From a virus, in the IMG/VR virus record IMGVR_UViG_3300044799_000154, positions 1 to 64,000 of that record: DNA of 64,000 bases; one strand, written 5' to 3'. The translations under genes were made by a program, and so were the position numbers. Below, in pieces: positions 1 to 64,000 of this stretch (position 1 is its first letter; every line of letters starts with the position of its first letter). Below the pieces are notes generated by a model. That model was not told the DNA's origin. It saw only the letters and a program-made list of their open reading frames with translations, and made no database searches.

Positions 1-46
1 AAAAGAACTTAATCCAAGTAAGAGGGATGCTCATTGATACCCTTTT

Positions 47-349
47 GTGATAGATGTGGAAAAGAGACTCTTCTTCTCCATAAATTCTGTGATGGCAAAT
101 ATTATTTCTGCCAAGCAGAAGATTAAAGCTGAAGCTGATGCAAATGTAACTCTTACAAAAGCTAGTGCTGATGCTCAGAAAGTCTTACTAGAAGCTCAAG
201 CTCAAGCTGAATCTCAAAGATTACTTAACCAACAGTTGACTGAGATATACTTACGCTATTTGGCTCTACTGCAATGGGATGGTAAACTTCCCTATTTCTG
301 GGCTAGTGATTCTCCCATACCTTTCATACCTGTAAATCCAACACCATAA
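47..349 (+). CDS. SPFH/band-7 (prohibitin-like) C-terminal domain protein, probably truncated
   Basis: Ala/Glu/Gln coiled coil (KIKAEADA..EAQAQAESQRLL) followed by WDGKLP, typical of the C-terminus of viral SPFH proteins; no N-terminal band-7 domain. Confidence 0.6.
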   Translation: MIDVEKRLFFSINSVMANIISAKQKIKAEADANVTLTKASADAQKVLLEAQAQAESQRLLNQQLTEIYLRYLALLQWDGKLPYFWASDSPIPFIPVNPTP

Positions 350-351
350 AC

Positions 352-396
352 GGAAAGGAAAGGTTCTAAACCTTTCTTATTTCCCTCTTTTTTTTC
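352..396 (+). terminator. putative intrinsic terminator
   Basis: hairpin GAAAGG/CCTTTC followed by a pyrimidine tract with T8, directly after the stop at 349. Confidence 0.5.
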
Positions 397-446
397 TATT
401 AGGAAGTTCTCATTCAAATTCTCCCTCAGGGCTGGAGGTAAAATTG

Positions 447-614: not shown

Positions 615-836
615 ATGAAAGACGCATACAATAGAAAGCTTCAATGTCCTAAATGCAATAGTAAGAAGATAGGATTTATTAAAGATTCAGAAGGAAAATC
701 TTCCAATCTTCTATATTGTGAATCTTGTGGTATGATAGGTTCTGTCCTTGCATTCAGAGCACTTCCTTCTTTACCTGAAAATCCTTCCAGACGAGATTCA
801 GATTTAGAAGACCCAGATGAACCTAGAGCATTTTAA
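615..836 (+). CDS. Zn-ribbon protein with NPSxR tag
   Basis: CPKC..CESCG; ENPSRR near the C-terminus. Confidence 0.7.
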   Translation: MKDAYNRKLQCPKCNSKKIGFIKDSEGKSSNLLYCESCGMIGSVLAFRALPSLPENPSRRDSDLEDPDEPRAF

Positions 837-849: not shown

Positions 850-1131
850 ATGTCAGAAAATCCAAGTCGAAGATTAAACAAAGTCTATGTGGTTCTTCTT
901 TTAGAATATCCAGAAGAGGGAGAGGGTGGATATGATTCCGTTGAAGTTGTCTATATAACGCAAGATAAAACCAAAGTAGAAGAGATTAGGAAACTTTGGG
1001 ATACTGTTGAGAAAGAAAAACACCATGATGATAATAAGACAATGAAAGCTCTATCTGATTTGCAACATAAGTTTGGTATTATCTGTTGGTCTGGTGAAGA
1101 ACTTAGAATAGAAGAGAGGGTCTTACAATGA
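850..1131 (+). CDS. hypothetical protein, N-terminal NPSxR tag
   Basis: MSENPSRR; stop overlaps next start. Confidence 0.65.
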   Translation: MSENPSRRLNKVYVVLLLEYPEEGEGGYDSVEVVYITQDKTKVEEIRKLWDTVEKEKHHDDNKTMKALSDLQHKFGIICWSGEELRIEERVLQ

Positions 1132-1373
1132 GACAAGCTACAGGTGGAAATCCTTCAAGTCGTAAGCAGTTATATGCTGTGCTCTTTGAATATCCTTTTG
1201 GATGCTTCTGGAAGTTCATGGAAGCAGAGAATGAGAAGGAAGCCAAACGCCTTTCTATTAGATGGCTTATGAAGTTGGAGAAAGAAGAACTTCAAGATAT
1301 TGTTATAAGAGAAGTAAAGCTAGTTTCCTCTCTGAAAGAAATAACAAAGCTAGATGGGTTGATAATGAAATGA
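1128..1373 (+). CDS. hypothetical protein, N-terminal NPSxR tag
   Basis: GNPSSRK; ATGA coupling at both ends. Confidence 0.6.
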   Translation: MRQATGGNPSSRKQLYAVLFEYPFGCFWKFMEAENEKEAKRLSIRWLMKLEKEELQDIVIREVKLVSSLKEITKLDGLIMK

Positions 1374-1822
1374 AAGCTAATAAACTAAGTTTTGATTCTC
1401 CAAATCCTAGTCGAAGGAAGCAAGTTGTTAGCTTAGATACTTATGCTCATAATTGGGGTATTTTAGTGCCATCCAATTCAGGATTTATTTGGGAACAACA
1501 AACAGATGGAGTAATGTGTAATCATATTCAGGTAGAGGGAATTTACATTCCCCTTCGAGAACCTAATGATTATCTTGCTAAGTTAAGGATAGCTAACTAT
1601 GATGGAAAATCTACTCTTGCTATCTGGAAAAAGATAAAGGAGACTATGAAGCAATGGGAAGGTTTCCAATGGATAGAAGTTGATAATCCTAATCCAACTA
1701 AATTCCCAAATAACCAAGAAGGAATGCAATGGATTAGAATAACAGATTGGTGTTCTTCTTTAGGAAGAGGAAAACAACTTATCGGAGAGACTGTCATACT
1801 CATATATCCCAACTGTGATTAA
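1370..1822 (+). CDS. hypothetical protein, N-terminal NPSxR tag
   Basis: start placed at ATG 1370 (ATGA overlap) rather than 1262; PNPSRR. Confidence 0.6.
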   Translation: MKANKLSFDSPNPSRRKQVVSLDTYAHNWGILVPSNSGFIWEQQTDGVMCNHIQVEGIYIPLREPNDYLAKLRIANYDGKSTLAIWKKIKETMKQWEGFQWIEVDNPNPTKFPNNQEGMQWIRITDWCSSLGRGKQLIGETVILIYPNCD

Positions 1823-2054
1823 AATGGACTGTCCTATAAAACAAAATTGTTTAGCTAAGGATTGGTATCCAATATTCAGAGAAGTTTATTTAGAAAGAAC
1901 ATGGGAAGAATGGGAACGAGAACTCTGCAATAGTGGTCAATATCTAAAATGTTGTTTCTACAATTCAAAAGGCTTTCGTTTTAATCCATCTAAACGTCAT
2001 TCTCAATCAGAGAAAGCCAAGAAAGTAATCAGAATCTTAGAAGGGAAAGAATAA
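1815..2054 (+). CDS. Cys-rich hypothetical protein with NPSxR tag
   Basis: FNPSKR. Confidence 0.6.
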   Translation: MIKMDCPIKQNCLAKDWYPIFREVYLERTWEEWERELCNSGQYLKCCFYNSKGFRFNPSKRHSQSEKAKKVIRILEGKE

Positions 2055-2230
2055 TGCCAAAGCAATGTCCTGTCTGTGGCTATGATTTTGATGACAAAGG
2101 TAATTATTGGATTTGTCATCATTGTGGATTCGTTATCTCTAAGAACATCCATAAAGGTAAAGGTATTCACAATATAAGAAATTTCAATCCGAGTAGCAGA
2201 GATAATTTAGATGTTAGACCCGAAATCTGA
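2054..2230 (+). CDS. small Zn-ribbon protein with NPSxR tag (below ORF-track cutoff)
   Basis: MPKQCPVCG..WICHHCG..FNPSSRD, translated by hand. Confidence 0.6.
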   Translation: MPKQCPVCGYDFDDKGNYWICHHCGFVISKNIHKGKGIHNIRNFNPSSRDNLDVRPEI

Positions 2231-2585
2231 AATAGGAAAAGAAGTATTTGTTTGTGTTATCCATGACAGCGAAGTCTATATAGGACTTCACCGTGAAGCT
2301 ACTTTTTCTTCTTGCAAGAAATTTTTAGATGAAGTTCTCTCTGGTAAAAGGAAGAAATTCAAAATCTGTTTTGGTAAAGGAAAAATACTTGGAGTAACGG
2401 AAGAGAAAAATAAGAAATACGAAGTTTTAATAACTAAACTTTTCTTGAATGATGAAAATAATATCAGGGAAGAAGGAAAAACCTGTTGTTATGCTGATCT
2501 TTGGATTGAATTGGGAGAATATGCTAGAGAGCAATTCTCGAATCAGAATCCTTCAAGAAGAAGAATCTTGAAAGATTTTGAGTAA
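2211..2585 (+). CDS. hypothetical protein with C-terminal NPSxR tag
   Basis: QNPSRRR. Confidence 0.6.
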   Translation: MLDPKSEIGKEVFVCVIHDSEVYIGLHREATFSSCKKFLDEVLSGKRKKFKICFGKGKILGVTEEKNKKYEVLITKLFLNDENNIREEGKTCCYADLWIELGEYAREQFSNQNPSRRRILKDFE

Positions 2586-2974: not shown

Positions 2975-3179
2975 TAGCTCAGATGGTAGTTTGGTAACAG
3001 GTCAATTAGAAAAATATTTATCAGACAAACCATTCGATGAAAATAATCTAGCTTTCAAAAGGAGAGGGTATCACATTCCTATTTTTCTTGACCAGATTGT
3101 TCATGTCTTTCCAAAGATTGAATTGAAAGAGAATCCTCAAGATATTAATCCTTCAAAGAGGGAATCTAATGAATCCTAG
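2928..3179 (+). CDS. hypothetical protein, paralog of 39009..39260, NPSxR tag
   Basis: shared GxW..GxxEK..KP..N..RG..FPKIxLK..INPSxR pattern. Confidence 0.65.
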   Translation: MKKVSVELGSWIQIVDSSDGSLVTGQLEKYLSDKPFDENNLAFKRRGYHIPIFLDQIVHVFPKIELKENPQDINPSKRESNES

Positions 3180-3408
3180 TAAGAGACAAGTTACTTGTTT
3201 GGAATGTAAAGAAAAAACTGATGCTGACGAAGTTGTCTGTAAAGAATGTTTTGAATCTACTCAAAATACTGCTTATGATAGTGGTTTTGATGATGGTAAG
3301 GCTGATGGAAAGAAAGAAGGTTATGAATCTGGACACGATGAAGGTTACAATGAAGGATATTCTGAAGCTATTAAGCAAGTTCAAAAAGCTATAGAGAAGC
3401 TGGCATAA
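3169..3408 (+). CDS. Zn-finger plus GxxxG-repeat protein, N-terminal NPSxR tag
   Basis: MNPSKR, CLEC..CKEC, GFDDG/GYESG/GYNEG repeats. Confidence 0.6.
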   Translation: MNPSKRQVTCLECKEKTDADEVVCKECFESTQNTAYDSGFDDGKADGKKEGYESGHDEGYNEGYSEAIKQVQKAIEKLA

Positions 3409-3650
3409 GAACTTGAGAAGTTATGAAGAGGATGACAAAGATTGACAATATTTGCAGTTAGAATCAAAGAATCGGATACCTATAACTACCATGTTTATCT
3501 AGTGGAAGCTAAGAATGAAAATCATGCCAAGAATGTAGCGGAAGCTAAATGGTATGAAAAACATAATATTAGAATAGCAGAAGGAGAAACCCAAGTCTGG
3601 GAAGTAGAATTAGATTTTAGTAATAGAGATAATCCGAGTGTGAGAGGCTA

Positions 3651-3893
3651 ATGGAAATCTGGGTAGAAAGGAAATTAACTAAGCATCAAACACCATGTCA
3701 ATTCTGTCATAGAGAGATAGACAAAGGAGACTTTAGAGTAGTTGTAAGATATAATGGATATCATCAGCAAGATTCATTGTATGCTCATGTTGGATGTCTT
3801 CAGAACTTCACAGAACGAGAATTACTTCGTGCTAAAGAAACTCCAATTACAATAGATGAGAAAGTTAATCCTAGTCGGAGAGATGGACAATGA
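3651..3893 (+). CDS. PARP-type Zn-finger-like protein with NPSxR tag
   Basis: CQFC..I.KG..R....HVGC pattern; similar to 12662..12916. Confidence 0.55.
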   Translation: MEIWVERKLTKHQTPCQFCHREIDKGDFRVVVRYNGYHQQDSLYAHVGCLQNFTERELLRAKETPITIDEKVNPSRRDGQ

Positions 3894-4345
3894 AAAAGAA
3901 AATGGGTATTATAGAAAAAGACCTTAGAGTATCTCTTACCAAATATAAGGAAGATAGAAATCTTCAAGCTCTTTTGAAAGCAATTGTTACTCAATCTGAT
4001 AGCCATATCCATTACTTTTGGCAATATGATTTCTTTCAGAAGAAACTAGAAAAAGTTTGCAAAGAACTGATAAGTAATTCCAATCCTAGTCATAGAGAAG
4101 GAAGAGTAGATGCAGTATCGCCTTGACAAAAAGAGTAAGCAGTATTACATGAAGGTTTGTGCATCTTGCAATGAGATATTTCTCTGTAAAGGAATATGTG
4201 AGAACTCTGAGAAAATATTCTATGAACAAAGTTGCATGTGTCCAGACCATTCAAGTCGAGAAGAGAAAAAGAAATGTCATAAACTTAGCTGGAAATACAA
4301 TCCATCTTACAGACATGAATATCCTCAAATTCAGGAGAAATAATT

Positions 4346-4771: not shown

Positions 4772-5001
4772 ATGCTTATTCTGTAATTTCTTTGATGAAT
4801 GCAGAAGATTAGAAGTTAATGAAATTATCATTAGAGCTATTCAAGAGACTGGAAAATGTCCTGATAGATATCCTATCAGAATAAATCCTTCTTGTAGAGT
4901 TCCTTTTTTCTATTGCTCAAGCAAGTATTATGTCATAGGCTCTGAAGAACCTATAGAGCTTGACAAATATTATAGAGTTCCTTCTAGGGAAGTGAAAGAA
5001 T

Positions 5002-5409
5002 ATGTGGAGAAATCTTAGAGAAAAAATATCAAGAACTTTGATTCCGCCAAAATCTAGAATCTATGTTAAACCAACTCAACAACCATCAACGATAGGTATG
5101 AAAGAACGAACTATTTTGTGTGATTGTTCAGATTGTAAAATAGAAAGTAAAGGATTCTTTGAAACGCTTCCTTTAGAAAATGGACATTGGACATCTTGCT
5201 CAGTTCATAAATGTAAAGACTGTGGTAGGATGGGTGGATTTCCACAAACAAACTTAGAAGATTCTATTTTGCATGGAACATTAGAAACTAAACAAGCTCT
5301 TCGTGATGCTGGTATTCCTGTAGATGAATTCATTACTGAATTCAAAAAGAAACACCCAATAACAGATGAACAATTGAATCCATCTAGGAGAGAAATAAAG
5401 AATGACTGA
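5002..5409 (+). CDS. Cys-rich hypothetical protein with NPSxR tag
   Basis: LNPSRRE at C-terminus. Confidence 0.6.
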   Translation: MWRNLREKISRTLIPPKSRIYVKPTQQPSTIGMKERTILCDCSDCKIESKGFFETLPLENGHWTSCSVHKCKDCGRMGGFPQTNLEDSILHGTLETKQALRDAGIPVDEFITEFKKKHPITDEQLNPSRREIKND

Positions 5410-5899
5410 TGATGATTGGTCTTACAAGATAAGTAAAAAGTATTGGCAGAACAAAGAAGAGTTAACAATTAAACTCCCACAAAATATCAAAGATGTCAAG
5501 ACAGTAGCTTATTTGTTGAGAACTTTCTTAGAGAACGAAAAGTGTCCTTTCAAAATTATCGGAGAAATAGAACTTCTCTACTCAGATAAAAGTGCAGATG
5601 CAAATTTAACTGAACATTGGGGTAGAGCTTATATTATAATTCCTGTATTGAAAAGAGGAATCTTAAAGAAACCTCGATATGACAAATTAGAAGAAAAGCA
5701 TTTCATAAAAGTAAGAATTTCTCTTGATAAATCAAATCTTGGAACATGGCAAGAACATTGTTGGGATAATGGAAATTGTCATAGATGGTACATGGAGATG
5801 GAACAAATCAAAGCATGGAAAGAACTTCTAGAGAAATTTGGTAAAACGCTTCCATCTTTGAAATCAAGTTCAGAGATAGGAAATCCTTCAGCTAGGTGA
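5402..5899 (+). CDS. hypothetical protein with NPSxR tag
   Basis: ends GNPSAR*. Confidence 0.6.
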   Translation: MTDDDWSYKISKKYWQNKEELTIKLPQNIKDVKTVAYLLRTFLENEKCPFKIIGEIELLYSDKSADANLTEHWGRAYIIIPVLKRGILKKPRYDKLEEKHFIKVRISLDKSNLGTWQEHCWDNGNCHRWYMEMEQIKAWKELLEKFGKTLPSLKSSSEIGNPSAR

Positions 5900-5903: not shown

Positions 5904-6248
5904 ATGAGTGTTTTCCAAGACCCTGATATAGTAGCTATACAAAGGTTCAAAGCAGATGTCTTTATCCTTACTAAAGAGAGAATCAAATTCACACTAGAAG
6001 GAAGTAAAGTATTGAATCCTTTCTCTGCTATATTAGACCCAAGATTCTATCGGGGTAATATTGATATTTTGGAAGATGCTGTTAGGAATAAGAGAAAACT
6101 ATGGCTTATAATAGAAGTAAGAAAAGTTTCAACAACGAATTCAGTATCCCAAGGTTTCTCTGCATCTGGAAAAATCTTTGTTCTCTCAGATGCTCACTAT
6201 GTAAATGAAGCTGAAGAGTTGGAGGATATTAATCCAAGTAAAAGGTAA
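5904..6248 (+). CDS. hypothetical protein with NPSxR tag
   Basis: ends DINPSKR*. Confidence 0.6.
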   Translation: MSVFQDPDIVAIQRFKADVFILTKERIKFTLEGSKVLNPFSAILDPRFYRGNIDILEDAVRNKRKLWLIIEVRKVSTTNSVSQGFSASGKIFVLSDAHYVNEAEELEDINPSKR

Positions 6249-6596: not shown

Positions 6597-6811
6597 CAGA
6601 GTTGAATGGGCTATCAGAAAAGCTCATCCTAAAGTAGATAAGGTAGGAAAGAACTGTCATGGAAATACACTACTTTATGGTGAGAAATATTTTGACTTAG
6701 AAGATACTCTGACTGAGATTATCCAAGATGCTTATCCTGCATATAGCAAGAAAAAGCAAACTTCATTCAATCCATCAAAAAGAGAATAACGTCTCTAAAA
6801 CGGGGTGAGCA

Positions 6812-6825: not shown

Positions 6826-7082
6826 AAGTTGGCATGTACAATTGTCCTGTTTGTAAGAAGAATCTTAAACGAATGGGTGAAGCTTCTATATTGACAGGCT
6901 TACCTAAAGAAGTAGGGAAGGAGATGGATTATTATTACTGTGCTGATTGTCACACGAATATGAATCGTTGTTGCTTTATCTTCTTTAAGGGCATAATATT
7001 CATTTTCTCTGACCATAAAAATTGGGAAGAACTAAGATTCAATCCAAGTGCAAGATATGGTGAAAATTATGAAATGCCCTGA
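6813..7082 (+). CDS. Zn-ribbon protein, family shared with 14544, 15883 and 19657; NPSxR tag
   Basis: CPVC..YYYCADC..aromatic strand..W..FNPSAR. Confidence 0.6.
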   Translation: MVNHEVGMYNCPVCKKNLKRMGEASILTGLPKEVGKEMDYYYCADCHTNMNRCCFIFFKGIIFIFSDHKNWEELRFNPSARYGENYEMP

Positions 7083-7180: not shown

Positions 7181-7600
7181 ATGAATCCTTCAAGTAGAGA
7201 AATATATGTAGTTGGTGTTTTTGACTGTGGCTGTAACTATGAAGCTGGCTTTGGGTCTGTAGAGATAGTCAGATGCTCAAATATGTCAGAACTCAATGAC
7301 ATCAAACAGAAGATGAATAAACACTCTTCAGAATTTCAATGTCATTTTAGACATGCCCTCTGTCTCTTGGTTTTTGAAGGAAAACTTAAATTCAAATTTA
7401 AGGGATATGGAGCTAAGAGTTACAAAGGATATATCAGAACTTGGAATGCTAGGAACAAAGATGGAAGGAAAATGGGTAAGGAAATAGTTACTTTTAATAA
7501 GCAATTTGATAGAATTTGTGCATGGCTTGAAAGACATAGAAAATATAAAGAGAAAATTATACTTCAAGAAGATGCTAATACAGGATGTGGTTTAGCTTGA
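7181..7600 (+). CDS. hypothetical protein, N-terminal NPSxR tag
   Basis: MNPSSRE. Confidence 0.6.
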   Translation: MNPSSREIYVVGVFDCGCNYEAGFGSVEIVRCSNMSELNDIKQKMNKHSSEFQCHFRHALCLLVFEGKLKFKFKGYGAKSYKGYIRTWNARNKDGRKMGKEIVTFNKQFDRICAWLERHRKYKEKIILQEDANTGCGLA

Positions 7601-7868: not shown

Positions 7869-8282
7869 ATGAGTGTGAAAATAACTCTTTCAGAGAATGC
7901 AAAGCGTCAGATTATCTTTCATGCTTGTCTTGATGCAAAGAATAAATTCTATCCAAATGCTATTGTCAATTGGGTAGATGATGATTATAAAATCTTAGTA
8001 TATTTTTGTTCTAAAATACAAACAAAGAAGAAAGTAGGTTTCTTACGAAAGAAAGAAATTTCTGAAGAACATGACTTAGAGATTCATTGTGTAGAAGTCA
8101 AACTCTGTCATCTAGGGTTCAATGATATGGATTGGGGAGAAATTAAAGTCAAGTCTCTTCATAAAGATTATGATGCCCTAGCAGAAGAGATAGCTCATAC
8201 CATTGAACAATACACATCAATAATTCTCATTATTAATAACCCAAGTAAAGTAGAATCTTTACAGAATCCAAGTAGGAGATAA
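7869..8282 (+). CDS. hypothetical protein with NPSxR tag
   Basis: NNPSKV..QNPSRR*. Confidence 0.6.
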   Translation: MSVKITLSENAKRQIIFHACLDAKNKFYPNAIVNWVDDDYKILVYFCSKIQTKKKVGFLRKKEISEEHDLEIHCVEVKLCHLGFNDMDWGEIKVKSLHKDYDALAEEIAHTIEQYTSIILIINNPSKVESLQNPSRR

Positions 8283-8690
8283 GATGAGATTCAAACGTGG
8301 ATATTATGGATATCTAGAGTTCGTCAGACCTAATCCATCTCGAAGAGACTCTTTTATTCAAACTGAATGCGAATGTGGCATAGAACCAGCTACACACTTT
8401 CATAAAGTTTACAAAGAGAGGAAAAGATGATGATGAGATGGTGGTGGTGTTCTAAACACCATATTGCTGTCCCTGTAACTGATGAATGTCCTATCTGTGA
8501 AAGAGAGAAGATGAATCCTAGTAGGCGAGAACAATGATTCCCACCTCATATTTTTGCCCCATCTGTAGTGAATATCGAGCTAATAATGTCTTTGACTTTA
8601 TTTCTCACATAAGTATGAAGCATGGACAAGGAAATCCTTTCAAAGATGAGGAAAGAAAATATTGGTTGAATCCTAGCAGGAGAGATAATC

Positions 8691-10440: not shown

Positions 10441-10865
10441 TGTAATGGGGGAATCGGGATATGTTTACTGAAGAAACAATTTCCTTAAAAAATATGGAAA
10501 GAGAGAAAAGGAAAATAGAGACTCATCCTAATTCTGCTCACCTTAAGATATTTCCTTTCAAATGCCCTAGTTGCAAGAAGACAGATATATTCTGGTTCAA
10601 TAGCAATGATTTCCTAGTCTGTAGTCATTGCCGTCATATATGGTTACTTGAAGTAGAGAATCCAACACGGAGAGATTGTAAATGAAAACTCCTCTAATCT
10701 GTGAAAGATGTCATAAGAAATTCTTATGTCAAGCTAGAGTTAGTGGAAAATATCCTGTATCCGATTGTGAGACAGTTGAAAAATGTGTCTGTGAGAATTG
10801 TAATCCTGCAAATAGAAAGTCACCTTCTTGTCATAATATTCCTTTTGAAATGAATCCGTCAAGAC

Positions 10866-11159
10866 GTGACAATTGAGGAAGACAACTTGAAAAACTGTGA
10901 AAAATGTGGTTTAGCTCCTGATTTATGTGCTTGCAAAGAAGAAGAGAAAGAGAAGTCAATGCTTGAGAAATATTGCCCAATCTCAGAAAGAGAAAGATGC
11001 GTGATATGTGGTCATATATGTTTTGGACTTATGGATTTTGCACAGCATGTAGCTCAATTTCATGGAATCTCTGCACTTCAGTATTGGAATAAATATGGAC
11101 ACAATGGAGAAAAACAAACTGATGAGACAATCAATCCATCTAAACGTAAACAAGAATAA
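10866..11159 (+). CDS. Zn-finger protein with aIF1/SUI1-like N-terminal knuckle and C2H2 finger; NPSxR tag
   Basis: CEKCGLAPDLCACKE resembles the archaeal aIF1 N-terminal CxxCGLPxxLCxCxE; CVIC..H...H. Confidence 0.5.
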   Translation: MTIEEDNLKNCEKCGLAPDLCACKEEEKEKSMLEKYCPISERERCVICGHICFGLMDFAQHVAQFHGISALQYWNKYGHNGEKQTDETINPSKRKQE

Positions 11160-11197: not shown

Positions 11198-11482
11198 TTG
11201 AGCCTAAAGCTCTTGCTGAATTATATGTATGTCCCTTATGTGGTTGTTGGATGCCTAGATATGAAAGATAAAAAGATTTGGAAAATCTATGTTAAAGATA
11301 ATCTTTGCATTCGATGTGGAAAGTTCATTGATGCTCAAACTTACTTTGGAGTCTTGTGTCAGAAATGTAATGAGTTGTGGATAGAATTTGCTCAAGAGAA
11401 TGGTATATCTCCACTTTATGCAGATTCTAAGAAGAAATTCTGGTATAGTTTCATAGATATGAATCCTTCAAGTAGGTTGTAA
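11198..11482 (+). CDS. Zn-finger protein, family shared with 14998 and 16978; NPSxR tag
   Basis: CxxC..LCxxC..W...W..F...NPSxR. Confidence 0.6.
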   Translation: MSLKLLLNYMYVPYVVVGCLDMKDKKIWKIYVKDNLCIRCGKFIDAQTYFGVLCQKCNELWIEFAQENGISPLYADSKKKFWYSFIDMNPSSRL

Positions 11483-11641
11483 TATGAACCCATCTTTAAG
11501 ATATAGAGTAAAATGTAAACCTGAGAAAGTAACATATCTTGGAGAAGCATTTATTGGTAAAAATTGTTATTATTGGATAAAAGGATATTGTAGTTTCAAA
11601 GGAAAATGTTGCTTCAAAGCAGGAACTAGAATGTGATTTAA

Positions 11642-12661: not shown

Positions 12662-12916
12662 ATGAAAGGTATGAAGTTATTTAAAATTCACACAGGAAGA
12701 GTAGAAGTTAAATGCTCTATCTGTTGGAAGAATATTCCTGTTGGAGAAGAAAGATTAACAGCCAATCTAGGTTCTGGAATGTATCCACGTCATTATCACA
12801 TTCTTTGTTTCTTGAAGAGATATATCAAAGAGATTAATTATCTTGGAAATAGAATTCAAGTAGAACTGAATCCTTCTTCAAGAAAAACAATAGAAAGCAA
12901 AGAGGAAGAAGAATGA
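12662..12916 (+). CDS. PARP-type Zn-finger-like protein with NPSxR tag
   Basis: CSIC..IP.GE.R....YHILCF. Confidence 0.55.
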   Translation: MKGMKLFKIHTGRVEVKCSICWKNIPVGEERLTANLGSGMYPRHYHILCFLKRYIKEINYLGNRIQVELNPSSRKTIESKEEEE

Positions 12917-13837: not shown

Positions 13838-14032
13838 AACAACATTCTCAGAAGAATATTGTAGAATTCTAAGGGAATCACAGCGAAGATTAGCTTTGAT
13901 ATCTGAAGAAGATGATAAGGCTTCTCTTTGGAATGACTACTTTCTGAAACTTCAACTTTTACAAGAATGTATAAATATGAATCCAAGTCGAAGAGACCAT
14001 AAAGAAAATAAAAACTACTCATTTGTAGCTCC

Positions 14033-14524: not shown

Positions 14525-15335
14525 GAAGGAGAAAATAATTAATATGGACAAAAAATGGGAAAATCTAAAAAGAAAGGAAGAAAAGTATATGAAGACACAC
14601 GATACTATGTTTGTCTGTCCTTATTGCAATGCTTTTCTAGTTCCTTGGTCTTGGGATGGGAATCGTGAAAAAGCTAAGACTGGTTATGTATTCCAATATG
14701 TTTGTCAATGTAATTTATCAAAAAGGAAAGGTTCTCCTTCATGGTATGAAACGATTGAGAAAAAAAGAAGAAGTGATTGGTATTTCTTCAATGGAATCCA
14801 ATGGACTAATCCATCTAAAGTTCCTATTTTATTCAATCCTTCGGTGAGATAATGAAAATACCTGAGATTTGTCCAAACTGTAAGAAGAAGACATATTGGA
14901 TTGAGAGGACAGAATTAAACTTTGACTCTGATGAGCCTAGTAGAATAGATGACCAAATCTTCGAATGTGATAATTGTCACACACTTTTCAGAGTTAGATG
15001 GGAATTAAAGTCTTTTCATCAACTTACAGAAGTTCCTACAAATCCCTCGGAAAGAAGCAAGAATGTCAAACATTGAATGAGGGATTCAGCATGAGAGAAA
15101 CCTGTTTTAAATGTAAAGAAAGTTTCAACAGGGAAGCTCTTTTTGAGATTTATCTTACCGTTCATCTTGCAACAGATAGTAATTGTTATCTTTGTCCGAC
15201 ATGTTTGGAAACATGGGTACAGATATACAACAGATGGAAACGAACAAGGCATGATGATTTCTGGAATAGAGGTTGGGATGAATTTCTAAAAAGGAAAGCC
15301 AAGAATATATTTAATCCCTCTATGAGAGGTTCTAC

Positions 15336-15938: not shown

Positions 15939-16526
15939 GATTATGGATTGTCCTTATTGTAAAAATAAGATGGATGTCTCAGAAGTTTCATCAACCTATA
16001 TTTGGAACAAGGGATTACCTAAACCTTTTTGCAATAAAGATTGGAAATATTATACTTGTGAAAAATGTTACAAAGACAAGAAAGGAGAAAATCACTTTTT
16101 CTGTTTTGTTTTTCTTCCAGATAAGGAGATTTACATCTGGGATAATTCCAAACACTACTGGAAAAAATTGAATCTTGCTATAAATCCATCAAGGAGAGAT
16201 AGTCCATACACAAAAGAAGAGAAAACAGGATAATTAAAGACAAAGCAATTAATTGGGATGGAGAAAATTGTTTGCTTATAGATTGCTATCGAGTAAAAAT
16301 AGAATTTAAACCTGATGGCATGATGAGATTCTACTTTTTCAATTGTAACGAGAAAGGAGATTCTTGCATTGAAATCAAAGAACCAATATTTCAAGCAATA
16401 GTTTCTCACGAAAAGGAAAGAACATTTATTTTCAATAATCCTTTTATAAATCCAAGTAAGAGGTTTAATAATGATAAAGCAAAAGACAAAGAATACTGAG
16501 AAAGAGAAGGACATGGCTATCTACTA

Positions 16527-16904: not shown

Positions 16905-17295
16905 GAACTTGAGGGTAAGGAGAAGACTCTTGTAAAGACAGAGAAAACCTCTGCCCTAAATACTATAGGAATTCCTCTTGAGAACCAAATTTATGCTTGG
17001 TCAAAAGGGAGAATATTCTAACTTCTCCAATTTTATTCCCTCAATAGAAGAGGAATCAAAATTGAAAGAAATCAGATGCTTAAAATGTCATGTAAAACTA
17101 AAACATAATCAAGGATTTAAAGTCAATTGGAATCCTACAGGATGGCTATGTTATTCTTGCCAAAATAAATGGACAGAACTATTTTTCAAAAAGAAATTAG
17201 AAAAAGCCATGTATGGTAAAAGAGAAGAACTTATCAATAAAGTCTGGAGAAATTTTATAGATTTCAATCCTTCTTATAGGTAGGTTGAATAAATT

Positions 17296-21763: not shown

Positions 21764-21764
21764 A

Positions 21765-48390: not shown

Positions 48391-48673
48391 AATATATATA
48401 CCTCTAACAAAAGAGATTAAAATTCAAGGATATAAGTTCAAGATAAAAGCTCTCACATTTGAAGACCTGAGAGTTCTAAGTTCTATCGACCAAACTAATG
48501 CCATAGAGTTCACCAAGACAGTCATGGAAAGAGGAGTATTGAAATCAGAAGCAGATATTTCTTCATTACCTATTCCATTGTATACTGAACTTCTTAAGGA
48601 AATCATGGATTTCTCTGGTCTTGGACAAGGAAACAATATTTTCAATCCTTCAGCGAGGAAACAAATACCTTGA
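48377..48673 (+). CDS. hypothetical protein, weakly tail-assembly-chaperone-like; NPSxR tag
   Basis: FKIKALTFEDL..I.DFSG pattern; FNPSAR. Confidence 0.4.
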   Translation: MKMSKIYIPLTKEIKIQGYKFKIKALTFEDLRVLSSIDQTNAIEFTKTVMERGVLKSEADISSLPIPLYTELLKEIMDFSGLGQGNNIFNPSARKQIP

Positions 48674-48726: not shown

Positions 48727-49710
48727 GTAAAAAGACCTCGAATAAGAATTCCTTCTTATGAAGAGCAATATCCTCATGATATGTTGTATCATCCTTCTCC
48801 CTCAATGAAAAGACTTGAGAAGATGATTGAAAAGGAGGACTTTAATCCTTCAAGACGCAGACAAAGAAAACTTAAGCAAATCTTGGATGAAGATACAGAA
48901 TTTGATAATGAGAATGACACTTAAGTAAAGGAATAATTATGGACCCTAGTAAAAGAGTAAACAAGAATCCTCATGTCACACCTGGTTGCCAAGGTTGTAT
49001 TTATGAAAATCAAGATAATCCTACTAAGAGACCTTGCTTTCTATGCGTTAGAAAAGAATTCATGATCATAGATAGCAAATTAACTACAAGGGAATTGATG
49101 GCTCATTACAAAGAATATTTTGAGGAAGGCAAACAAACGTATAGAGATCATTATATGCCTCATGAAAAGGTTTAGGGAAGGATAAAATGACTGAGACTCG
49201 GAAATTAGATGTATGGAAATTGAAAGATAGACAACTGATTGAGAAGCTTCCATGTGCTTTCTGTGGAAAACATAAGATAAGCTTTAGAAGCTCAGATGGA
49301 TATGAATCTCATTTCTCAGATTCAGACTTTGATTGTCTCAATTGTGGTTGTTGTTATCCTGTTGGTTTATTCATACCAGACAAGACTCTAGATGAATGCA
49401 AGGAAATGATGAAAAGGAGAGCATTGGGATATTATACTCAACTTCAGAAAGATTACCTAGAAAAATCTGAGATTGCTACAAGATTGAAGAAACAAATGAA
49501 AATGTATGAGGATAATTTCAATCCATCAAAGAGGGAAGAACTTGGAAGATGACAGACCTCGTTGTATAGATTGTGCTATGTATCAAATAGGATGTAGAAG
49601 TGAAGAGCTCTTATGTTGTTCTTGCTGTCCTGAGTATAGAAGAATCCCTGGAGATTGGAGAATAGTTATAGATAGATTACTCATCAGAATAACTAGATGG
49701 TGGTTGAAAC

Positions 49711-50007
49711 ATGGAAATAAAGGACTATATTAGACTTTGTGGAGAATCTGCAAATAGGAAAGGTTGGAGAGTAACCTGGGAACAACTCCCTGCTTTTCTC
49801 ATGGCTACTATAGATGAACTAACAAATGGCTTTGAGAAAGGTTGGAGAGATGATAATCCAGAGAAAATGAATGAAGAGATCGGAGATTGTTTTGTCAGGC
49901 TCTTTCATATATGTCACGATCTAGATATACCAATTGAAGATATCTTAAAGAAGATAATGAAAAACAATGAGAAGAGGATAAAGTTACATGGGCACAAGCG
50001 GATTTAA
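49711..50007 (+). CDS. MazG-like NTP pyrophosphatase
   Basis: DEL..EEIGDCFVRL..KM..NEKR. Confidence 0.75.
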   Translation: MEIKDYIRLCGESANRKGWRVTWEQLPAFLMATIDELTNGFEKGWRDDNPEKMNEEIGDCFVRLFHICHDLDIPIEDILKKIMKNNEKRIKLHGHKRI

Positions 50008-50772
50008 TCCTAGTCTTCGAAGAAAAGTAATTCAATTGGGAAAAGTCTACATTCCTCCTAATTACATGATTGCTAAAATCTGGAGAAAACCTGATTACAG
50101 AAAAGATATTGCATATTCCTGTAATATTCATGTTGCTACTTTAGCTTCCTTAACAGAGCAACAAACTAACAGAATAATCTCAGTGTCCAAAGTTAAACCT
50201 TTGGTTAAATATCCACTCAAACTCTGGAGGAATGCTGGAGTTACTACAAGTTATTTTGATATAGAAAAAGTTGTGGCTGCTTTTGATTATCCTTTGAAAC
50301 AAAAATGTGTTCTAACAATTCGTCCTACTCTAGATTCTAATGGACATTCCATGCTTATGAATATTGGTTACTTCTTATGGCAAGTAGCTAGAGCTTATCA
50401 AGATATAGTTTATGTGAGTCCTCAGAAATATGGTATTTGGGGTCATGGTTTAAATGATCTTTACTTTGAAACTATAATTTTGAAGAAAATATCGCCTAAG
50501 AATTATTATGGAGTAGTTGATTTTGGGTCTTAATAACAATAATGCAATAAAGACTAGAGAAAAAACAGGGAAGGAAATCTTTTGCCCTGTTTGTGGATCT
50601 AAGGTTAAACCTAAATGTCCATTCTATGCTTTTTGTACTTACAGATTAAATGATCTGGGAATTCCTCATCTTTGTGTATCTCATCCTGAGATGTGTGATT
50701 TCTTCAAAAGTCAAGGAGGAATTTCCAAGATGAATGTTGAAGTTAACCCGAGTAGAAGAGATGAACTAGATT

Positions 50773-52500: not shown

Positions 52501-53256
52501 GAAAGAATGTTTGGGACAACATGATTATGCTCGTGAGGATTGTTATTCTTGTCCTCAAAGAGTAGAATGTATGCTCAAGAAGTTTGAAAATAAAGAACAA
52601 TTTGATGATTGGGGAGATGGAGAGAAACCTAACTGCTTTGGAAGTTACAGAGGAAGAGCAGACTGTGGTTCTTGTGGATATAGAAAGGAATGCTCTGGAA
52701 TTAGCAAAGATATTCTTAAAGGAAAGACTCAGAAAAGACATGGTGGCAAGTACAAAAGTAGAGGCAAGGAAATAGAGAGGGATATCTATTGACAACTATT
52801 AGAGAAAGAATAGAAGATGACCAGTTCTTTCCATGGGTTATTAATCATTTTGTAAAACATAAAGGGCAAGTTCCACTTTGCTGTTTTTCCAATAAGAAAA
52901 CAAAGAAAGGGTGGGTTTTAAACTGCACTTGGTTACGGTCTCAAGGAGTAAAAGACCTCTCTTTTAAAGAGTTCCAAGTCAAATGTTTAGAATGTCAGAA
53001 AGAGATTGAAAAGAAAATAAGAGAATGGGATGAAGCTTATGGCAAAAGTTCATAGATATAAACACGGAAAGGGAGAAAGGATAACTGTTCTAAATAACAA
53101 TGGCACAGTAGGAGCCGTCATCTATATAGACAAAAAAGGTAATGTTCATTGTGATAGCTGGATTAATTACAATCAAACCAACAAGAAGAAATTTGATGGG
53201 GCTATGTATGATGATTCTAAATCTAAATCCAGAAAATTTGATCCATCTTATAGGGA

Positions 53257-53838
53257 ATGCAAAGGATTGATATCATGAGTTTACATCCAATTGATAGGCA
53301 AAAGAAGAATTGGACTGATGAAGAATTAGAAAAGATGTTTATATTTTGTCTATTAGATAGAGCAATGCCTTATGAAAAAGTATGCAAAGCTTTCAATCAT
53401 TTAGATCAATGTGGATTAACTACAAGAAATGGACTTAAACGAATATCTTATCCTTACAAAGATGAAGCACATATTGCTAATAAATTACGAGAAGTCGGCT
53501 ATCGCTTTCCTAATCAAACTGCTAAATTTCTAATGTTATTCGTTTCTAATCCAATTGATTTGAGAAATGCGTCCAGAGATGAGATTGCAGAGAATGTTAA
53601 GGGAATAGGGTATAAACTTGCTTCAATGTTCTTAAGAAATACTCGTGGAGAAGAATATGCTGTCTTAGATGTTCATGTCAAAAGATGGCTCAAAGAGAAA
53701 GGCATCCTATTCAAGAAATACAAAGATCAGGAAAGAGCATTCCTGAGTTTGGCTAGAGCTATGGGTAAAACTCCCTATGAGTTAGATATGGAAATATGGC
53801 AGGAACGTAGAATTGGGAACAAAAATAAATCCAAGTAA
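53257..53838 (+). CDS. ogg: 8-oxoguanine DNA glycosylase (archaeal OGG, HhH-GPD)
   Basis: GYRFPN, VKGIGYKLASMFLRN, AVLDVHV and LD..IW. Confidence 0.85.
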   Translation: MQRIDIMSLHPIDRQKKNWTDEELEKMFIFCLLDRAMPYEKVCKAFNHLDQCGLTTRNGLKRISYPYKDEAHIANKLREVGYRFPNQTAKFLMLFVSNPIDLRNASRDEIAENVKGIGYKLASMFLRNTRGEEYAVLDVHVKRWLKEKGILFKKYKDQERAFLSLARAMGKTPYELDMEIWQERRIGNKNKSK

Positions 53839-54271
53839 AAGATATCAAGGTTCTCTTCCTTCTTTAGCTTTATATTTAGAAGCTTTGAAAGATGGAAATA
53901 ACAAATGTGTTTGTTGTGGTTATCCAGTTCAACTTTCTAATGTTTCTTCTTTCTCAAGAAGATACGTTAACTTCAAATGGCAATGGTTTCTGATATGCAA
54001 AAATGATTATTGTGAAAGAATGGAAAGAAGTGGAAAGTATGCGGATTAATCCCAGTAGAAGATTTCAAAAAGAAGACTTCTATTGTTATCTAGAAGCAGA
54101 TTCTCTTGTTATTACGAAAGAAGAACTCACGGAGTTAGAATCATTAAAAATAGATATTCTAAGAACGTATCATATTAAGAAAATTAGGAGGAAAGAAATA
54201 TGAAAAGAACCAAAGACTTAAATACAGGTGAAACACCTTGTATGTTGGAAGGAAGGATGGTGTCCTAGAAG

Positions 54272-62362: not shown

Positions 62363-62797
62363 CGATCTAATAGAAATGCTTAGAAAGTATAAAGAAGAGA
62401 AAGAAGCTAGAGACTTTCTTATGAGGATTCTATTAGAGCATCCAGAGAAGAAAACCGAAATGGATGAGGAATTGTGGAAGAAGAAGACTAATCCATCGAA
62501 GAGGAATAATAAATGACGGGAAAGATAAAGTATGGGTTCCATGAATTACGCAATAAAAACCCAAATAAGTATACCAGAGAACTTTATAAAGTCAATTTAG
62601 ACTATAAACAAAAGAAAATAATTCGTAGTCTGAATTCTTATTATAATAATAAAACTTGGATGGTTAGAAATTGTATTACATGTGGTAGATTCTGCTCTAA
62701 GTATTCTAGTAAGTACTGCAAAGATTGTGCAGTAATCTTTCATATAATTGATTCTAGAATTGGAGCTTGTGAACAAAGGAGGAGGCAAAAATAGTTT

Positions 62798-63223
62798 ATG
62801 AAAATCTTCACGAGATATCCAAGAATATGTATGCGTGAGAAGAAAGTAGTCTTCTCAGAAGAAGAATTATTGGATAATATCCGAGAAGGAGCTCAAAATA
62901 GAAAGCAATGTATAATGAGCTTATACTCCTTTGAAGAAGTCTATGATAAGAAAGTAAGACCAGAGACTGCTGTTATTGATTGTGCTATGTGGATTGGAGA
63001 TAGAGCATTCTGTGAAAGTAAATGTAAATTATTTCCACATGATTCATCTCTCGTTATTGATGAAGGCAAGGATCATTTAGCTATTGTCTTCAAGAACTTT
63101 ACACGAGAACAATTACAAAGTTTAAATGCCTGTACAGAGTTAGATATTATGATTGTTGTGCCTGGTTGCTTGAACCTCCGCACAGGCAAGAAATGTACTA
63201 TCGTCAAGAGGAATAACATTTGA
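62798..63223 (+). CDS. hypothetical protein, weakly primase-N-terminus-like
   Basis: YPR..V.S.EE...SLYSF...AVID pattern, but no clear DxD. Confidence 0.35.
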   Translation: MKIFTRYPRICMREKKVVFSEEELLDNIREGAQNRKQCIMSLYSFEEVYDKKVRPETAVIDCAMWIGDRAFCESKCKLFPHDSSLVIDEGKDHLAIVFKNFTREQLQSLNACTELDIMIVVPGCLNLRTGKKCTIVKRNNI

Positions 63224-63376
63224 AAATAATAGATAAAATTGCGAGTACAGTAATTTTAAATACAGGTGAAAATATTCAAATAGGACCAATATTACTAATG
63301 AATACAGCATCTGGAAAGAAATTACGAATCTCAATAGAAATATCTGAAGAAATAAATCCATCTGGGAGAAAAGAAA

Positions 63377-64000
63377 ATGAAGAAACCTAAGATCATTTGG
63401 ATAACACAATTTCCTCTATCTGGAGTATCCTTTGGTGCTGTTAGTCAGCAATTGCTAATGCCATTGACTAATAAATATGATATCTATTGCCTAAGCTTTG
63501 GATATGATGGACAGCCCCTCGACATAGGGTATACAATATTACCATTCTCATCTGGAAGTCATATTGACTTCTATTGGAAAGAGATCAAGCCAGACTTGGT
63601 AGTTCTATTCCATGCTGTAGTTGCTTTGCCTAAGATAATGTCTATGGGAAGATTTGCAGAGCCATCAATCTTGTATGTTCCTGTGGAAGGTCATAGAGTT
63701 CCTCCAAGTTATATTTCATATTTCCAGCACTTTGATAGAATCATTACTCCTTCAAAATGGAGTCAAGATGCTTTAGCTAGAGACAAGATAAACGCTGAGA
63801 TTCTACCTCATGGTGTCAATACTGACTTCTATCATCCTTATGAGAGGAAGAATGAGGCATTCACATTTGGGTATTTAGGTTCAAATGATACAAGGAAACA
63901 AGTACCCACGATTATGGATGCATTTGCTAGAGTTAAAGGACCAAAGGAATTGAATATGGCAACTCCAATTCAAGGATACATGGATTTAGGAGAAGTTTCT
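63377..64000 (+). CDS. GT4-family glycosyltransferase (partial, runs off the window)
   Basis: hand translation MKKPKIIWITQFP..IITPSKWS..ILPHGVNTDFYHP..FGYLG.N..RK. Confidence 0.8.
   Translation, partial: MKKPKIIWITQFPLSGVSFGAVSQQLLMPLTNKYDIYCLSFGYDGQPLDIGYTILPFSSGSHIDFYWKEIKPDLVVLFHAVVALPKIMSMGRFAEPSILYVPVEGHRVPPSYISYFQHFDRIITPSKWSQDALARDKINAEILPHGVNTDFYHPYERKNEAFTFGYLGSNDTRKQVPTIMDAFARVKGPKELNMATPIQGYMDLGEVS

Follow-up and report, generated by a model that had tools for sequence, protein, structure and literature searches.

NPSxR, a strict and mostly terminal pentapeptide on about 70 unrelated small proteins of a putative archaeal tailed virus

Introduction

In phage T4, a capsid targeting sequence stands at the N-terminus of a few proteins (IPI-III, Alt) and is cut by the prohead protease at a site shared with head proteins. 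The PEXEL motif of Plasmodium (RxLxE/Q/D) and the RxLR motif of oomycetes lie N-terminally behind a signal peptide and direct export, with a secretory-pathway protease as the reader. PRANC, a folded C-terminal domain some 40 residues long, occurs on paralogous poxvirus ankyrin-repeat proteins and has the host protein Skp1 as partner, and the ssrA (SspB/ClpX) and Lon tags are short terminal peptides that are added to, or exposed on, few substrates and act at one end. The viral 2A (StopGo) peptide, D(V/I)ExNPGP, needs its NPGP within a long open frame. Here we describe a pentapeptide, N-P-S-x-R (NPSxR, searched as NPS.R and hereafter also the tag), that recurs on small proteins encoded in the first 64 kb of the IMG/VR virus record IMGVR_UViG_3300044799_000154; this whole stretch of 64,000 nucleotides is what we call the window.

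The record has 121,517 bp, is classed as linear and is 92% complete according to CheckV. At about 80.9 kb, the coding strand switches from plus to minus. By Pfam, the minus-strand half codes for a portal, an HK97-type capsid protein, an archaeal LonB protease and tail-type proteins, and the same scan of the record found a Nal1-like protease domain. Of all the parts of a large viral genome, its small early proteins are understood least, and here nearly half of them share one strict label.

Results

A six-frame translation of the window yielded 74 exact NPS.R matches on the three plus frames (19, 22 and 33) and none on the three minus frames, in agreement with an earlier note, made from the letters alone, which had counted about 74 in-frame copies on the plus strand and none on the minus strand. 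For the whole record the count is still 74 and 0: all copies lie before 63.4 kb, with 25, 16, 4, 13, 10, 4 and 2 in successive 10-kb segments and then none, and the remaining 57.5 kb (64-121 kb) hold none on either strand. In the 150 genes called on the plus-strand arm with a greedy caller of open reading frames (ORFs), which together comprise 20,679 residues, amino acid composition predicts 0.15 matches, and 1000 within-protein shuffles gave a mean of 0.138 and never more than 2. NPSxR is therefore real and very far from chance, and the comparison with other frames and shuffled controls that the earlier note had proposed turned out in its favour. The coordinates and codon strings that the note had quoted (at 11, 780, 1983, 3631, 15041, 6248, 46640, 5899, 3169, 850 and 7181) were all correct.

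The motif is strict at four of its five positions. On the plus frames, no residue other than N occurs more than twice before PS.R, none other than P more than five times in NxS.R, and none other than R more than twice at the end of NPS.x, with K found once. Position 3 of the 85 NPx.R matches is S in 74, T in 4, N in 3, A in 2, F and L in 1 each, and G in 0. In the called genes, the full motif makes up 68 of the 72 NPS and 68 of the 73 PS.R. Fourteen different residues occur at x, with K or R in 44 of the 74 tags. In a first gene set of 60 tags, the residue before N was F in 17 and I/L/M/V in a further 21, and the residue after R was D or E in 20, giving the fuller consensus hydrophobic-N-P-S-[K/R/x]-R-[D/E/K]. 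The terminal variants NPTRR (twice), DPSKR, DPSYR and NPSRK may be weak versions of the tag; NPSRK, which the earlier note had assigned to the RNase H, is indeed at residue 6 of that ORF (32309-32833).

Selection on this motif acts on amino acids and not on DNA or RNA. Codon use within it is near background, with both boxes used for Ser (TCN 44, AGY 24) and for Arg (AGR 50, CGN 18), and the flanking bases are uninformative except for a T at -2, since this is the second base of the hydrophobic residue that precedes N. The string AAYCC occurs 129 times in codon phase 0 and only 26 and 21 times in the other phases. Orthologues from relatives recovered through their B-family DNA polymerase (PolB) exchange codon boxes: the tag at 33215 has TCA and CGT for Ser and Arg in the window and AGC and AGA in the closest relative (L005), and the tag at 33244 has TCC for Ser in the window and AGC in a more distant one (L007). 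The claim of the earlier note that the constraint is on the peptide rather than on a nucleic acid site is thus well borne out. Overlap with Shine-Dalgarno sequences, which the note had named as a possible explanation to be checked, plays a secondary part. About half of the C-terminal tags in called genes (25 of 49) stop 4-17 nt short of the following start codon, and these are enriched in AGG (9/25 vs 5/43) and in Shine-Dalgarno-like cores (11/25 vs 6/43). Part of the motif thus has a second use at the level of nucleotides, which affects codon choice at x-R and perhaps the preferred position, but Shine-Dalgarno overlap cannot create or explain N-P-S. The virus also codes for a tRNA-Ser with anticodon GCU, which reads AGY (window 10316-10404). 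The share of AGT among tag Ser codons is 34%, compared with 22% elsewhere in the arm, a weak trend.

Carriers of the tag are 66 of the 150 called genes; six further motifs belong to ORFs dropped by the greedy caller, to an ORF cut by the record start, or to a frameshifted tail. By length, they amount to 5/16 of the proteins of 30-60 residues, 36/52 at 60-100, 21/48 at 100-150, 4/19 at 150-250 and 0/15 at 250 residues or more, so the large core enzymes lack the motif, as had been noted before. The tag is C-terminal in 53 of 74 cases (0-21 residues from the stop), N-terminal in 16 (residues 2-19) and internal in 5, the tags at 11 and 33564 having been placed by hand. The earlier description of tags lying mostly within about 15 residues of the C-terminus was roughly right, the measured spread being somewhat wider, and the substantial N-terminal minority that it reported is there. 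In called genes, 34 of the 49 C-terminal tags lie at most 7 residues from the stop. Two ORFs of the window, 25263-25580 (C2H2-like) and 33017-33244, do carry two copies each as previously read, one at either end. At three junctions, the C-terminal tag of one gene pairs with an N-terminal tag that its neighbour, read in a different frame, carries 25-29 nt further on (3147/3172, 11462/11487, 33215/33244), and the relative L007 has such pairs at 103/128 and 1439/1464, which makes five junctions in all. Neighbouring genes overlap by 4 nt at 24 of 149 junctions.

The carriers have no overall similarity to each other, as the earlier note had stated. With the motif masked, an all-against-all BLASTP of the 150 proteins found three pairs at E<=1e-3, of which a single one joins two carriers (ORFs 39009-39260 and 2928-3179), and on this ground we reject paralogy or recent duplication as the origin of the shared peptide. 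A Pfam scan of 20 carriers found nothing above cut-off. A transmembrane-like segment was seen in 1 of 66 carriers vs 9 of 84 non-carriers, and hydrophobic leaders in none; because only one carrier has such a segment, we regard the carriers as probably soluble and cytoplasmic. At least two CxxC motifs occur in 19/66 carriers and also in 18/84 non-carriers. The tag is independent of the protein body, is found at either end and can occur twice.

Evidence from relatives points in the same direction. In the three contigs with PolB identities of 88, 60 and 41% (L005, L006 and L007), the motif is found on the coding strand only (3/0, 1/0 and 5/0), and more distant loci do not follow this pattern (L004 1/1, L008 0/0, L009 0/2). 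Judging from these contigs, relatives retain the tag as far out as 41% polymerase identity. In L004 (34% PolB identity), the most distant PolB relative with any tag, a small protein whose C-terminus holds a hydrophobic segment (1760-2008) has ELNPSLRE near its N-terminus, and there is one match on the opposite strand; this may be the edge of the tag's range, or chance.

The most informative carrier is ORF 33238, for which 13 database orthologues with 62-76% identity were found. All 12 that have an N-terminus start with the tag (M-x-NPSKR), and all 13 end in [IVM]-NPS-x-R followed by 1-3 residues. In the window's own copy of this two-tag gene (33238-33581), a shift within a GA run near 33520-33530 puts the last 20 residues, including the C-terminal tag, out of frame and accounts for the seemingly orphan motif at 33564; the frameshift could be an assembly error, decay or programmed slippage. 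A profile of the family run against 1.84 billion representatives matched eight proteins, comprising six true distant members, the query clade and one false match, P0048, a highly repetitive protein of 1334 residues that was hit in 15 stretches and was set aside as caused by its repeats. Three of the six distant members have only the N-terminal tag, one has only an N-terminal NPSKK variant, one has only the C-terminal tag, and one, cut at its N-end, has the C-terminal tag. This mixture of tagged ends suggests that the body is old and that at least one tag is kept while the tagged end changes. The family alignment found no relatives in viral_contigs. An AlphaFold2 model of the family (15 rows) has moderate confidence, with a mean predicted local distance difference test (pLDDT) of 63 and a predicted template modelling score of 0.44, and shows a small alpha/beta body; residues 1-7 and 115-119 have pLDDT <50 and no secondary structure. 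Foldseek found no match to this model in the PDB at E<=0.001.

Other bodies tell of gain and retention. The neighbour of RadA codes for a zinc ribbon that ends in ITNPSGR in L007, whereas its copies in the window and in L004-L006 and all 11 database orthologues lack the tag. ORF 33017 and L005_3150 are 42% identical over 33 residues of their bodies and keep the tails FNPSRRDS and INPSRRDS, and the L005 orthologue of ORF 62325-62516 retains the tag with other codons. These alignments indicate that the motif is portable: it is gained and lost on conserved bodies, and within one family it moves between N- and C-termini. Portability, unrelated carriers, termini predicted to be unstructured in the one family modelled, and constraint at the level of the peptide together amount to the behaviour of a short linear motif, and NPSxR has the features of this class, being short, terminal, rapidly gained and lost, conserved in amino acids and carried by unrelated proteins.

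Each of the described systems resembles NPSxR in part. Like the T4 capsid targeting sequence, which gives its carriers a common destination, it is one short peptide on small, unrelated, fast-evolving viral proteins; unlike it, NPSxR is mostly C-terminal, is N-terminal in only 16 of the 74 cases instead of on all carriers, belongs to about 70 genes on the arm with the replication genes and is absent from the capsid-side half. Virion loading of the T4 kind, which had been put forward as a role, therefore fits poorly, as no NPS.R occurs in the 64-121 kb that hold the identified capsid, portal and tail-type genes. With PEXEL and RxLR, which are read by one machine, NPSxR shares a strict motif of pentapeptide scale on very many unrelated small proteins; its carriers, in contrast, have no hydrophobic leader, and the N-terminal place behind a signal peptide that export motifs of this type occupy is not the usual one here. 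The PRANC/F-box-like module is likewise a terminal module shared by many viral proteins with differing binding bodies, and it plugs them into a protein-handling machine, but NPSxR is five residues on unrelated bodies. Like degradation tags, which decide how an ATP-dependent machine handles their carriers, it is short and terminal, and this virus codes for LonB, although no link between NPSxR and LonB was obtained. The invariant N-P core, the constraint on amino acids and the viral setting recall 2A peptides, which we reject because G was never found at position 3 and the tags lie at the ends of separate small ORFs. We also reject the N-glycosylation sequon N-x-S/T (x is always Pro in our motif, and 65 of 66 carriers lack a transmembrane-like or leader segment) and the PIP box, Qxx[LIM]xx[FY][FY], from which the NPSxR consensus differs. 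T4 capsid targeting, PEXEL/RxLR, PRANC and adaptor-read tags are its closest counterparts by function; in position, carriers and context, NPSxR departs from their testable features, and it belongs to none of them.

A search for a protein that might read the tag gave no receptor. Pfam scans of 90 proteins found no classical peptide-binding domain; in the 92%-complete record, MoxR AAA+ (PF07726) and vWA (PF13519) had 0 matches at E<=0.01, and no protein kinase domain (PF00069) was found. PCNA (PCNA_N, PF00705) had no match in the record at E<=1, a search that covered viral proteins and left the host PCNA outside. Four unannotated proteins of 226-260 residues had no PDB sequence match at E<=0.05; the Atlas structure search gave nothing usable for 27321-28052, and a single-sequence AlphaFold2 model of 17296-18078 was uninformative (pLDDT 38.7). 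A protein of 503 residues was considered and rejected, being by its Atlas match (score 0.96, HATPase_c_3 clusters) a GHKL ATPase near a Top6A-like gene. LonB, the only ATP-dependent protein-handling machine found to be encoded by the virus, is no more than a candidate reader: a prediction of its complex with the two-tag family, run without controls, scored 0.00 (mark 0.32), which speaks neither for nor against binding.

Another candidate was a transglutaminase-fold protein of 199 residues (13238-13837) that retains a complete core of the Cys/His/Asp type; among solved structures, its best relatives are peptide:N-glycanases (PNGases; 2f4m, E 4.7e-10). It was tempting because N-P-S has the outline of a sequon. 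Its N-terminus carries KKK followed by a hydrophobic anchor, and under the positive-inside rule its catalytic domain is expected outside the cell; as the carriers appear to be soluble, we consider it an unlikely reader. It is possibly an extracellular viral enzyme that trims glycans or proteins.

On the host side, 400 kb of one Bathyarchaeia chromosome (21% of the genome) hold 2 NPS.R vs 0.64 expected, both internal, and so show no sign of a copied host motif in this part of one genome of uncertain host class. A full-text literature search found no paper with NPSxR, and the papers on NPSRR or NPSKR among the matches listed were irrelevant by title and start of abstract. In the available passages of a preprint on Bathyarchaeia viruses (PMC10541130), the only motif mentioned is N-X-S/T on spindle-virus capsid proteins; these passages contain no mention of a release factor, topoisomerase, zinc or initiation factor, and its supplements might list related genomes.

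Discussion

We favour, with a probability of roughly 0.6, the reading that NPSxR is a portable, terminal short linear motif that a single conserved partner recognises on the finished protein in the cytoplasm. Placed on the loose N- or C-end of nearly half of the arm's small, soluble and unrelated proteins, it would serve as an address or handling mark common to them all. Probably folded as an Asx-Pro turn and anchored by its Arg, the exposed peptide would dock into the partner, so that all these mini-proteins would meet the same fate or come together in the same place. The reader might be viral or come from the host, and reading might consist in binding, in delivery to a machine (for example for timed removal by a protease or unfoldase), or in bringing the target of the protein body there. 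That a portable peptide under selection has one reader, and that it docks there, we infer. The earlier note had likewise proposed a portable short linear motif read by one receptor; its first half, with unrelated carriers, mostly terminal tags and peptide-level constraint, is supported in kind, and the search of the record yielded no receptor.

Several points weigh against this reading. The search gave no reader, so the single partner is something we infer. With four invariant positions and K not accepted for R, NPSxR is stricter than most docking motifs, which would suit an enzyme's active site equally well. The closeness of 25 of the 49 C-terminal tags to the next start, together with several N-terminal tags at residues 2-3, means that the motif also tracks gene junctions, making a co-translational role possible. 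In addition, one carrier family was modelled, at moderate confidence; the relatives available as DNA are three short contigs; and the host assignment comes from one gene, with 21% of one genome of the candidate host class scanned.

The same strictness is what makes an enzyme's substrate site worth weighing, either a processing-protease site from which short stubs are cut off at either end, in the manner of PEXEL or viral polyprotein sites, or a site where Ser, Asn or Arg is modified, since enzymes typically show this kind of specificity, with four fixed positions and no K in place of R. What lies beyond the tag is short in every case (0-21 residues after C-terminal and 1-18 before N-terminal tags), and the virus offers candidates in two GNATs, a weak phosphatase-like ORF, the PNGase-like protein, LonB and the Nal1-like protease domain. 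Seven tags, however, are the very last residues or lie at residues 2-6, where cutting beyond them would remove nothing or one Met; if the prohead protease cut at NPS.R, the motif would be expected in capsid-side proteins, which have none; no protein kinase domain is encoded in the record; and the PNGase-like catalytic domain should lie outside the cell, away from soluble carriers. To our knowledge, moreover, N-P-S is the one N-x-S form unused by known oligosaccharyltransferases, and we consider a substrate site unlikely overall. The link with gene junctions could instead point to the ribosome, where NPSxR in the nascent chain would slow or mark ribosomes near stops and starts for termination-reinitiation along the long operons of overlapping genes, perhaps with the viral aRF1, aIF-1A and eS26. 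A signal of this kind would likewise depend on the reading frame while tolerating any choice of codons, and it would agree with the tags near stops and starts, the five junctions tagged on both sides and the 4-nt overlaps. It agrees poorly with a distance to the stop that spreads over 0-21 residues without the fixed register of known arrest peptides, with five internal tags, with tags that are gained, lost or moved on conserved bodies while the genes stay put, and with the more than half of junctions that are untagged (66 carriers among 150 genes), so that we think it highly improbable.

We give even less credence to a peptide that acts without any protein reader, be it a basic Asx-Pro turn that binds nucleic acid as SPKK motifs do or an unstable Asn-Pro bond whose spontaneous breakage sets how long the tail lasts. 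Some viral capsid proteins are known to cleave themselves at Asn-Pro, most tags have K or R at x, all end in R, and 19 of 66 carriers have the zinc-ribbon look of two or more CxxC; yet an invariant S beside a free x (14 residues) is unlike simple charge-based binding, an acidic residue follows the tag in 20 of 60 cases, and five residues alone would probably bind nucleic acid weakly. A signal at the nucleotide level (Shine-Dalgarno, recombination or RNA processing), or a by-product of recent duplication, has practically no probability left: set against the AGG and Shine-Dalgarno-like enrichment in tags 4-17 nt before a start are the excess of AAYCC in phase 0 only, the Ser and Arg codon boxes that are both used and exchanged between orthologues, the unconserved flanks, carriers that are not paralogues, and N-terminal and internal tags that have no start codon to serve. 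As a nucleotide signal, the motif would be independent of frame and conserved in its bases, and it is neither.

A more specific form of the favoured reading, in which one partner reads the label after translation, would make the roughly 70 mini-proteins an adaptor library, whose bodies grip different host or viral targets while the tag plugs into one machine, such as the membrane protease LonB or a host unfoldase. We regard this as speculative and rather unlikely. If it were true, a single reader would let the virus remove many targets together, move them or set their timing, and this would be an undescribed proteome-handling system of archaeal viruses. If the label has a single reader, that reader could reveal a central hub of the infection, and about 70 uncharacterised proteins would fall into one functional class; NPSxR would also be the first peptide label of this genome-wide kind from an archaeal virus and would provide a short transferable tag for archaeal work.

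Features and gene content of the record

The coordinates of all tags and variants are collected in Table 1.

Table 1. NPSxR tags and variants in the window (window coordinates; aa, amino acids; N- or C-terminal refers to the place of the motif in its ORF).
Feature	Position	Strand	Place	ORF	Remark
Tagged arm	11..63390	+			~150 tightly packed genes; 66 called genes and 6 further ORFs hold 74 tags
NPSKR	11..25	+	3 aa to stop		ORF cut by record start
NPSRR	780..794	+	C-terminal, 13 aa to stop	615-836	
NPSRR	859..873	+	N-terminal, residue 4	850-1131	
NPSSR	1149..1163	+	N-terminal, residue 8	1128-1373	
NPSRR	1403..1417	+	internal, residue 48	1262-1822	
NPSKR	1983..1997	+	C-terminal, 18 aa to stop	1815-2054	
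NPSSR	2186..2200	+	C-terminal, 9 aa to stop	2054-2230	
NPSRR	2547..2561	+	C-terminal, 7 aa to stop	2211-2585	
NPSKR	3147..3161	+	C-terminal, 5 aa to stop	2928-3179	first of 25-nt pair
NPSKR	3172..3186	+	N-terminal, residue 2	3169-3408	second of 25-nt pair
NPSVR	3631..3645	+	C-terminal, 1 aa to stop	3442-3651	
NPSRR	3867..3881	+	C-terminal, 3 aa to stop	3651-3893	
NPSHR	4082..4096	+	C-terminal, 9 aa to stop	3890-4126	
NPSYR	4299..4313	+	C-terminal, 9 aa to stop	4110-4343	
NPSCR	4884..4898	+	internal, residue 47	4746-5018	
NPSRR	5377..5391	+	C-terminal, 5 aa to stop	5002-5409	
NPSAR	5882..5896	+	last residues	5402-5899	
NPSKR	6231..6245	+	last residues	5904-6248	
NPSKR	6769..6783	+	C-terminal, 1 aa to stop	6538-6789	
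NPSAR	7041..7055	+	C-terminal, 8 aa to stop	6813-7082	
NPSSR	7184..7198	+	N-terminal, residue 2	7181-7600	
NPSRR	8265..8279	+	last residues	7869-8282	AGGAGA 5 nt before next ATG
NPSRR	8332..8346	+	N-terminal, residue 17	8284-8430	
NPSRR	8514..8528	+	C-terminal, 2 aa to stop	8427-8537	short ORF
NPSRR	8669..8683	+	C-terminal, 14 aa to stop	8534-8728	
NPSRR	10853..10867	+	C-terminal, 2 aa to stop	10682-10876	
NPSKR	11133..11147	+	C-terminal, 3 aa to stop	10866-11159	
NPSSR	11462..11476	+	C-terminal, 1 aa to stop	11198-11482	first of 25-nt pair
NPSLR	11487..11501	+	N-terminal, residue 2	11484-11636	second of 25-nt pair
NPSSR	12869..12883	+	C-terminal, 10 aa to stop	12662-12916	
NPSRR	13980..13994	+	C-terminal, 18 aa to stop	13815-14051	
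NPSVR	14835..14849	+	last residues	14544-14852	
NPSER	15041..15055	+	C-terminal, 6 aa to stop	14852-15076	
NPSMR	15313..15327	+	C-terminal, 3 aa to stop	14998-15339	
NPSRR	16183..16197	+	C-terminal, 11 aa to stop	15883-16233	
NPSKR	16449..16463	+	C-terminal, 11 aa to stop	16272-16499	
NPSYR	17266..17280	+	last residues	16978-17283	
NPSRR	18633..18647	+	C-terminal, 2 aa to stop	18429-18656	
NPSLR	18731..18745	+	internal, residue 27	18653-18952	
NPSRR	19622..19636	+	C-terminal, 7 aa to stop	19271-19660	
NPSRR	19888..19902	+	C-terminal, 2 aa to stop	19657-19911	
NPSER	25296..25310	+	N-terminal, residue 12	25263-25580	C2H2-like, both ends tagged
NPSKR	25542..25556	+	C-terminal, 7 aa to stop	25263-25580	
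NPSSR	28243..28257	+	C-terminal, 8 aa to stop	28021-28284	
NPSRR	29660..29674	+	C-terminal, 11 aa to stop	29324-29710	then variant NPNRR at 29681-29695
NPSRR	30828..30842	+	C-terminal, 3 aa to stop	30570-30854	
NPSFR	31765..31779	+	C-terminal, 7 aa to stop	31474-31803	
NPSSR	31854..31868	+	N-terminal, residue 19	31800-32312	
NPSCR	33056..33070	+	N-terminal, residue 14	33017-33244	both ends tagged
NPSRR	33215..33229	+	C-terminal, 4 aa to stop	33017-33244	
NPSKR	33244..33258	+	N-terminal, residue 3	33238-33564	N-terminal tag of two-tag family
NPSKR	33564..33578	+	3 aa to a stop		frameshifted C-terminal tag of two-tag family
NPSTR	34466..34480	+	internal, residue 67	34268-34657	
NPSRR	34717..34731	+	residue 28	34636-34887	
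NPSMR	35467..35481	+	N-terminal, residue 15	35425-35730	
NPSAR	35745..35759	+	N-terminal, residue 6	35730-35927	
NPSRR	37713..37727	+	C-terminal, 13 aa to stop	37380-37769	
NPSLR	39225..39239	+	C-terminal, 6 aa to stop	39009-39260	
NPSRR	40937..40951	+	C-terminal, 2 aa to stop	40610-40960	
NPSKR	41908..41922	+	C-terminal, 4 aa to stop	41557-41937	
NPSKR	42102..42116	+	C-terminal, 7 aa to stop	41937-42140	
NPSKR	43498..43512	+	C-terminal, 1 aa to stop	43267-43518	
NPSYR	44313..44327	+	C-terminal, 1 aa to stop	44151-44333	
NPSKR	45603..45617	+	N-terminal, residue 8	45582-45821	sole carrier with transmembrane-like segment, at C-end
NPSKR	46623..46637	+	last residues	46302-46640	
NPSAR	48644..48658	+	C-terminal, 4 aa to stop	48377-48673	
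NPSRR	48844..48858	+	C-terminal, 21 aa to stop	48670-48924	
NPSKR	49520..49534	+	C-terminal, 5 aa to stop	49187-49552	
NPSLR	50006..50020	+	N-terminal, residue 7	49988-50533	
NPSRR	50745..50759	+	C-terminal, 8 aa to stop	50517-50786	
NPSKR	53828..53842	+	N-terminal, residue 6	53813-54049	
NPSRR	54048..54062	+	N-terminal, residue 16	54003-54203	
NPSKR	62490..62504	+	C-terminal, 3 aa to stop	62325-62516	
NPSGR	63355..63369	+	C-terminal, 6 aa to stop	63220-63390	
Variant NPTRR	10659..10673	+	3 aa to stop	10461-10685	
Variant NPTRR	19247..19261	+	1 aa to stop	18956-19267	
Variant DPSKR	48942..48956	+	residue 2	48939-49175	
Variant DPSYR	53240..53254	+	7 aa to stop	53030-53278	
Variant NPSRK	32324..32338	+	residue 6	32309-32833	RNase H

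Besides the tagged genes, the plus-strand arm codes for PolB, ribonucleotide reductase (RNR), Topo IB, a Top6A-like Toprim protein and two metallophosphoesterases; for RadA, XPF, a PAPS-reductase-like protein, an NTP transferase and two ParB-like proteins; for Ogg, an HD protein, RNase H, two GNATs, a SLOG protein and a PRTase; and, among translation genes, for aRF1 (with NIKS and GGQ kept), aIF-1A and eS26. The aIF-1A is closest to Bathyarchaeia (50-57% identity in 12 of 13 loci). We take the record to come from an uncultured tailed archaeal virus, with a Bathyarchaeia host as a weak hint only, from aIF-1A. The nearest deposited viruses among GenBank phage records are haloarchaeal tailed viruses, with PolB identity <=27%. 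The viral PolB profile matched 0 of 401 sampled Bathyarchaeia genomes at E<=1e-60, neither Topo IB nor aRF1, each scanned singly against viral_contigs, found a relative, and a PolB alignment search found 1 distant locus in viral_contigs and 5 in metagenome_contigs.

The viral aRF1 (11642-12631, 329 residues) aligned to Aeropyrum aRF1 over residues 9-287; of domain 3, only the start matches. At 20609-24158, a Toprim protein of the Top6A/Spo11 type (384 residues) is followed by two small ORFs and the GHKL ATPase of 503 residues; the two look like a virus-encoded pair of the Topo VI/VIII kind, beside the Topo IB at 46855-48390. In a metallophosphoesterase (39523-40617, 364 residues), the last 35-45 residues resemble the small tagged ORFs 2054-2230 and 16978-17283 (BLASTP E 6e-5 and 3e-5), and from this similarity some mini-proteins may be detached zinc-ribbon ends of larger proteins. 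An ORF of 151 residues (19911-20366) has a weak dual-specificity-phosphatase match (E 8e-5, 22.9 bits), under the Pfam cut-off of 33.5. The ParB-like proteins are coded at 26288-27310 and 56339-57220. Finally, the 14-bp palindrome CATGGTTAACCATG has 8 copies at <=1 mismatch vs 0.01 expected, all in the tagged arm (window 447-42219).

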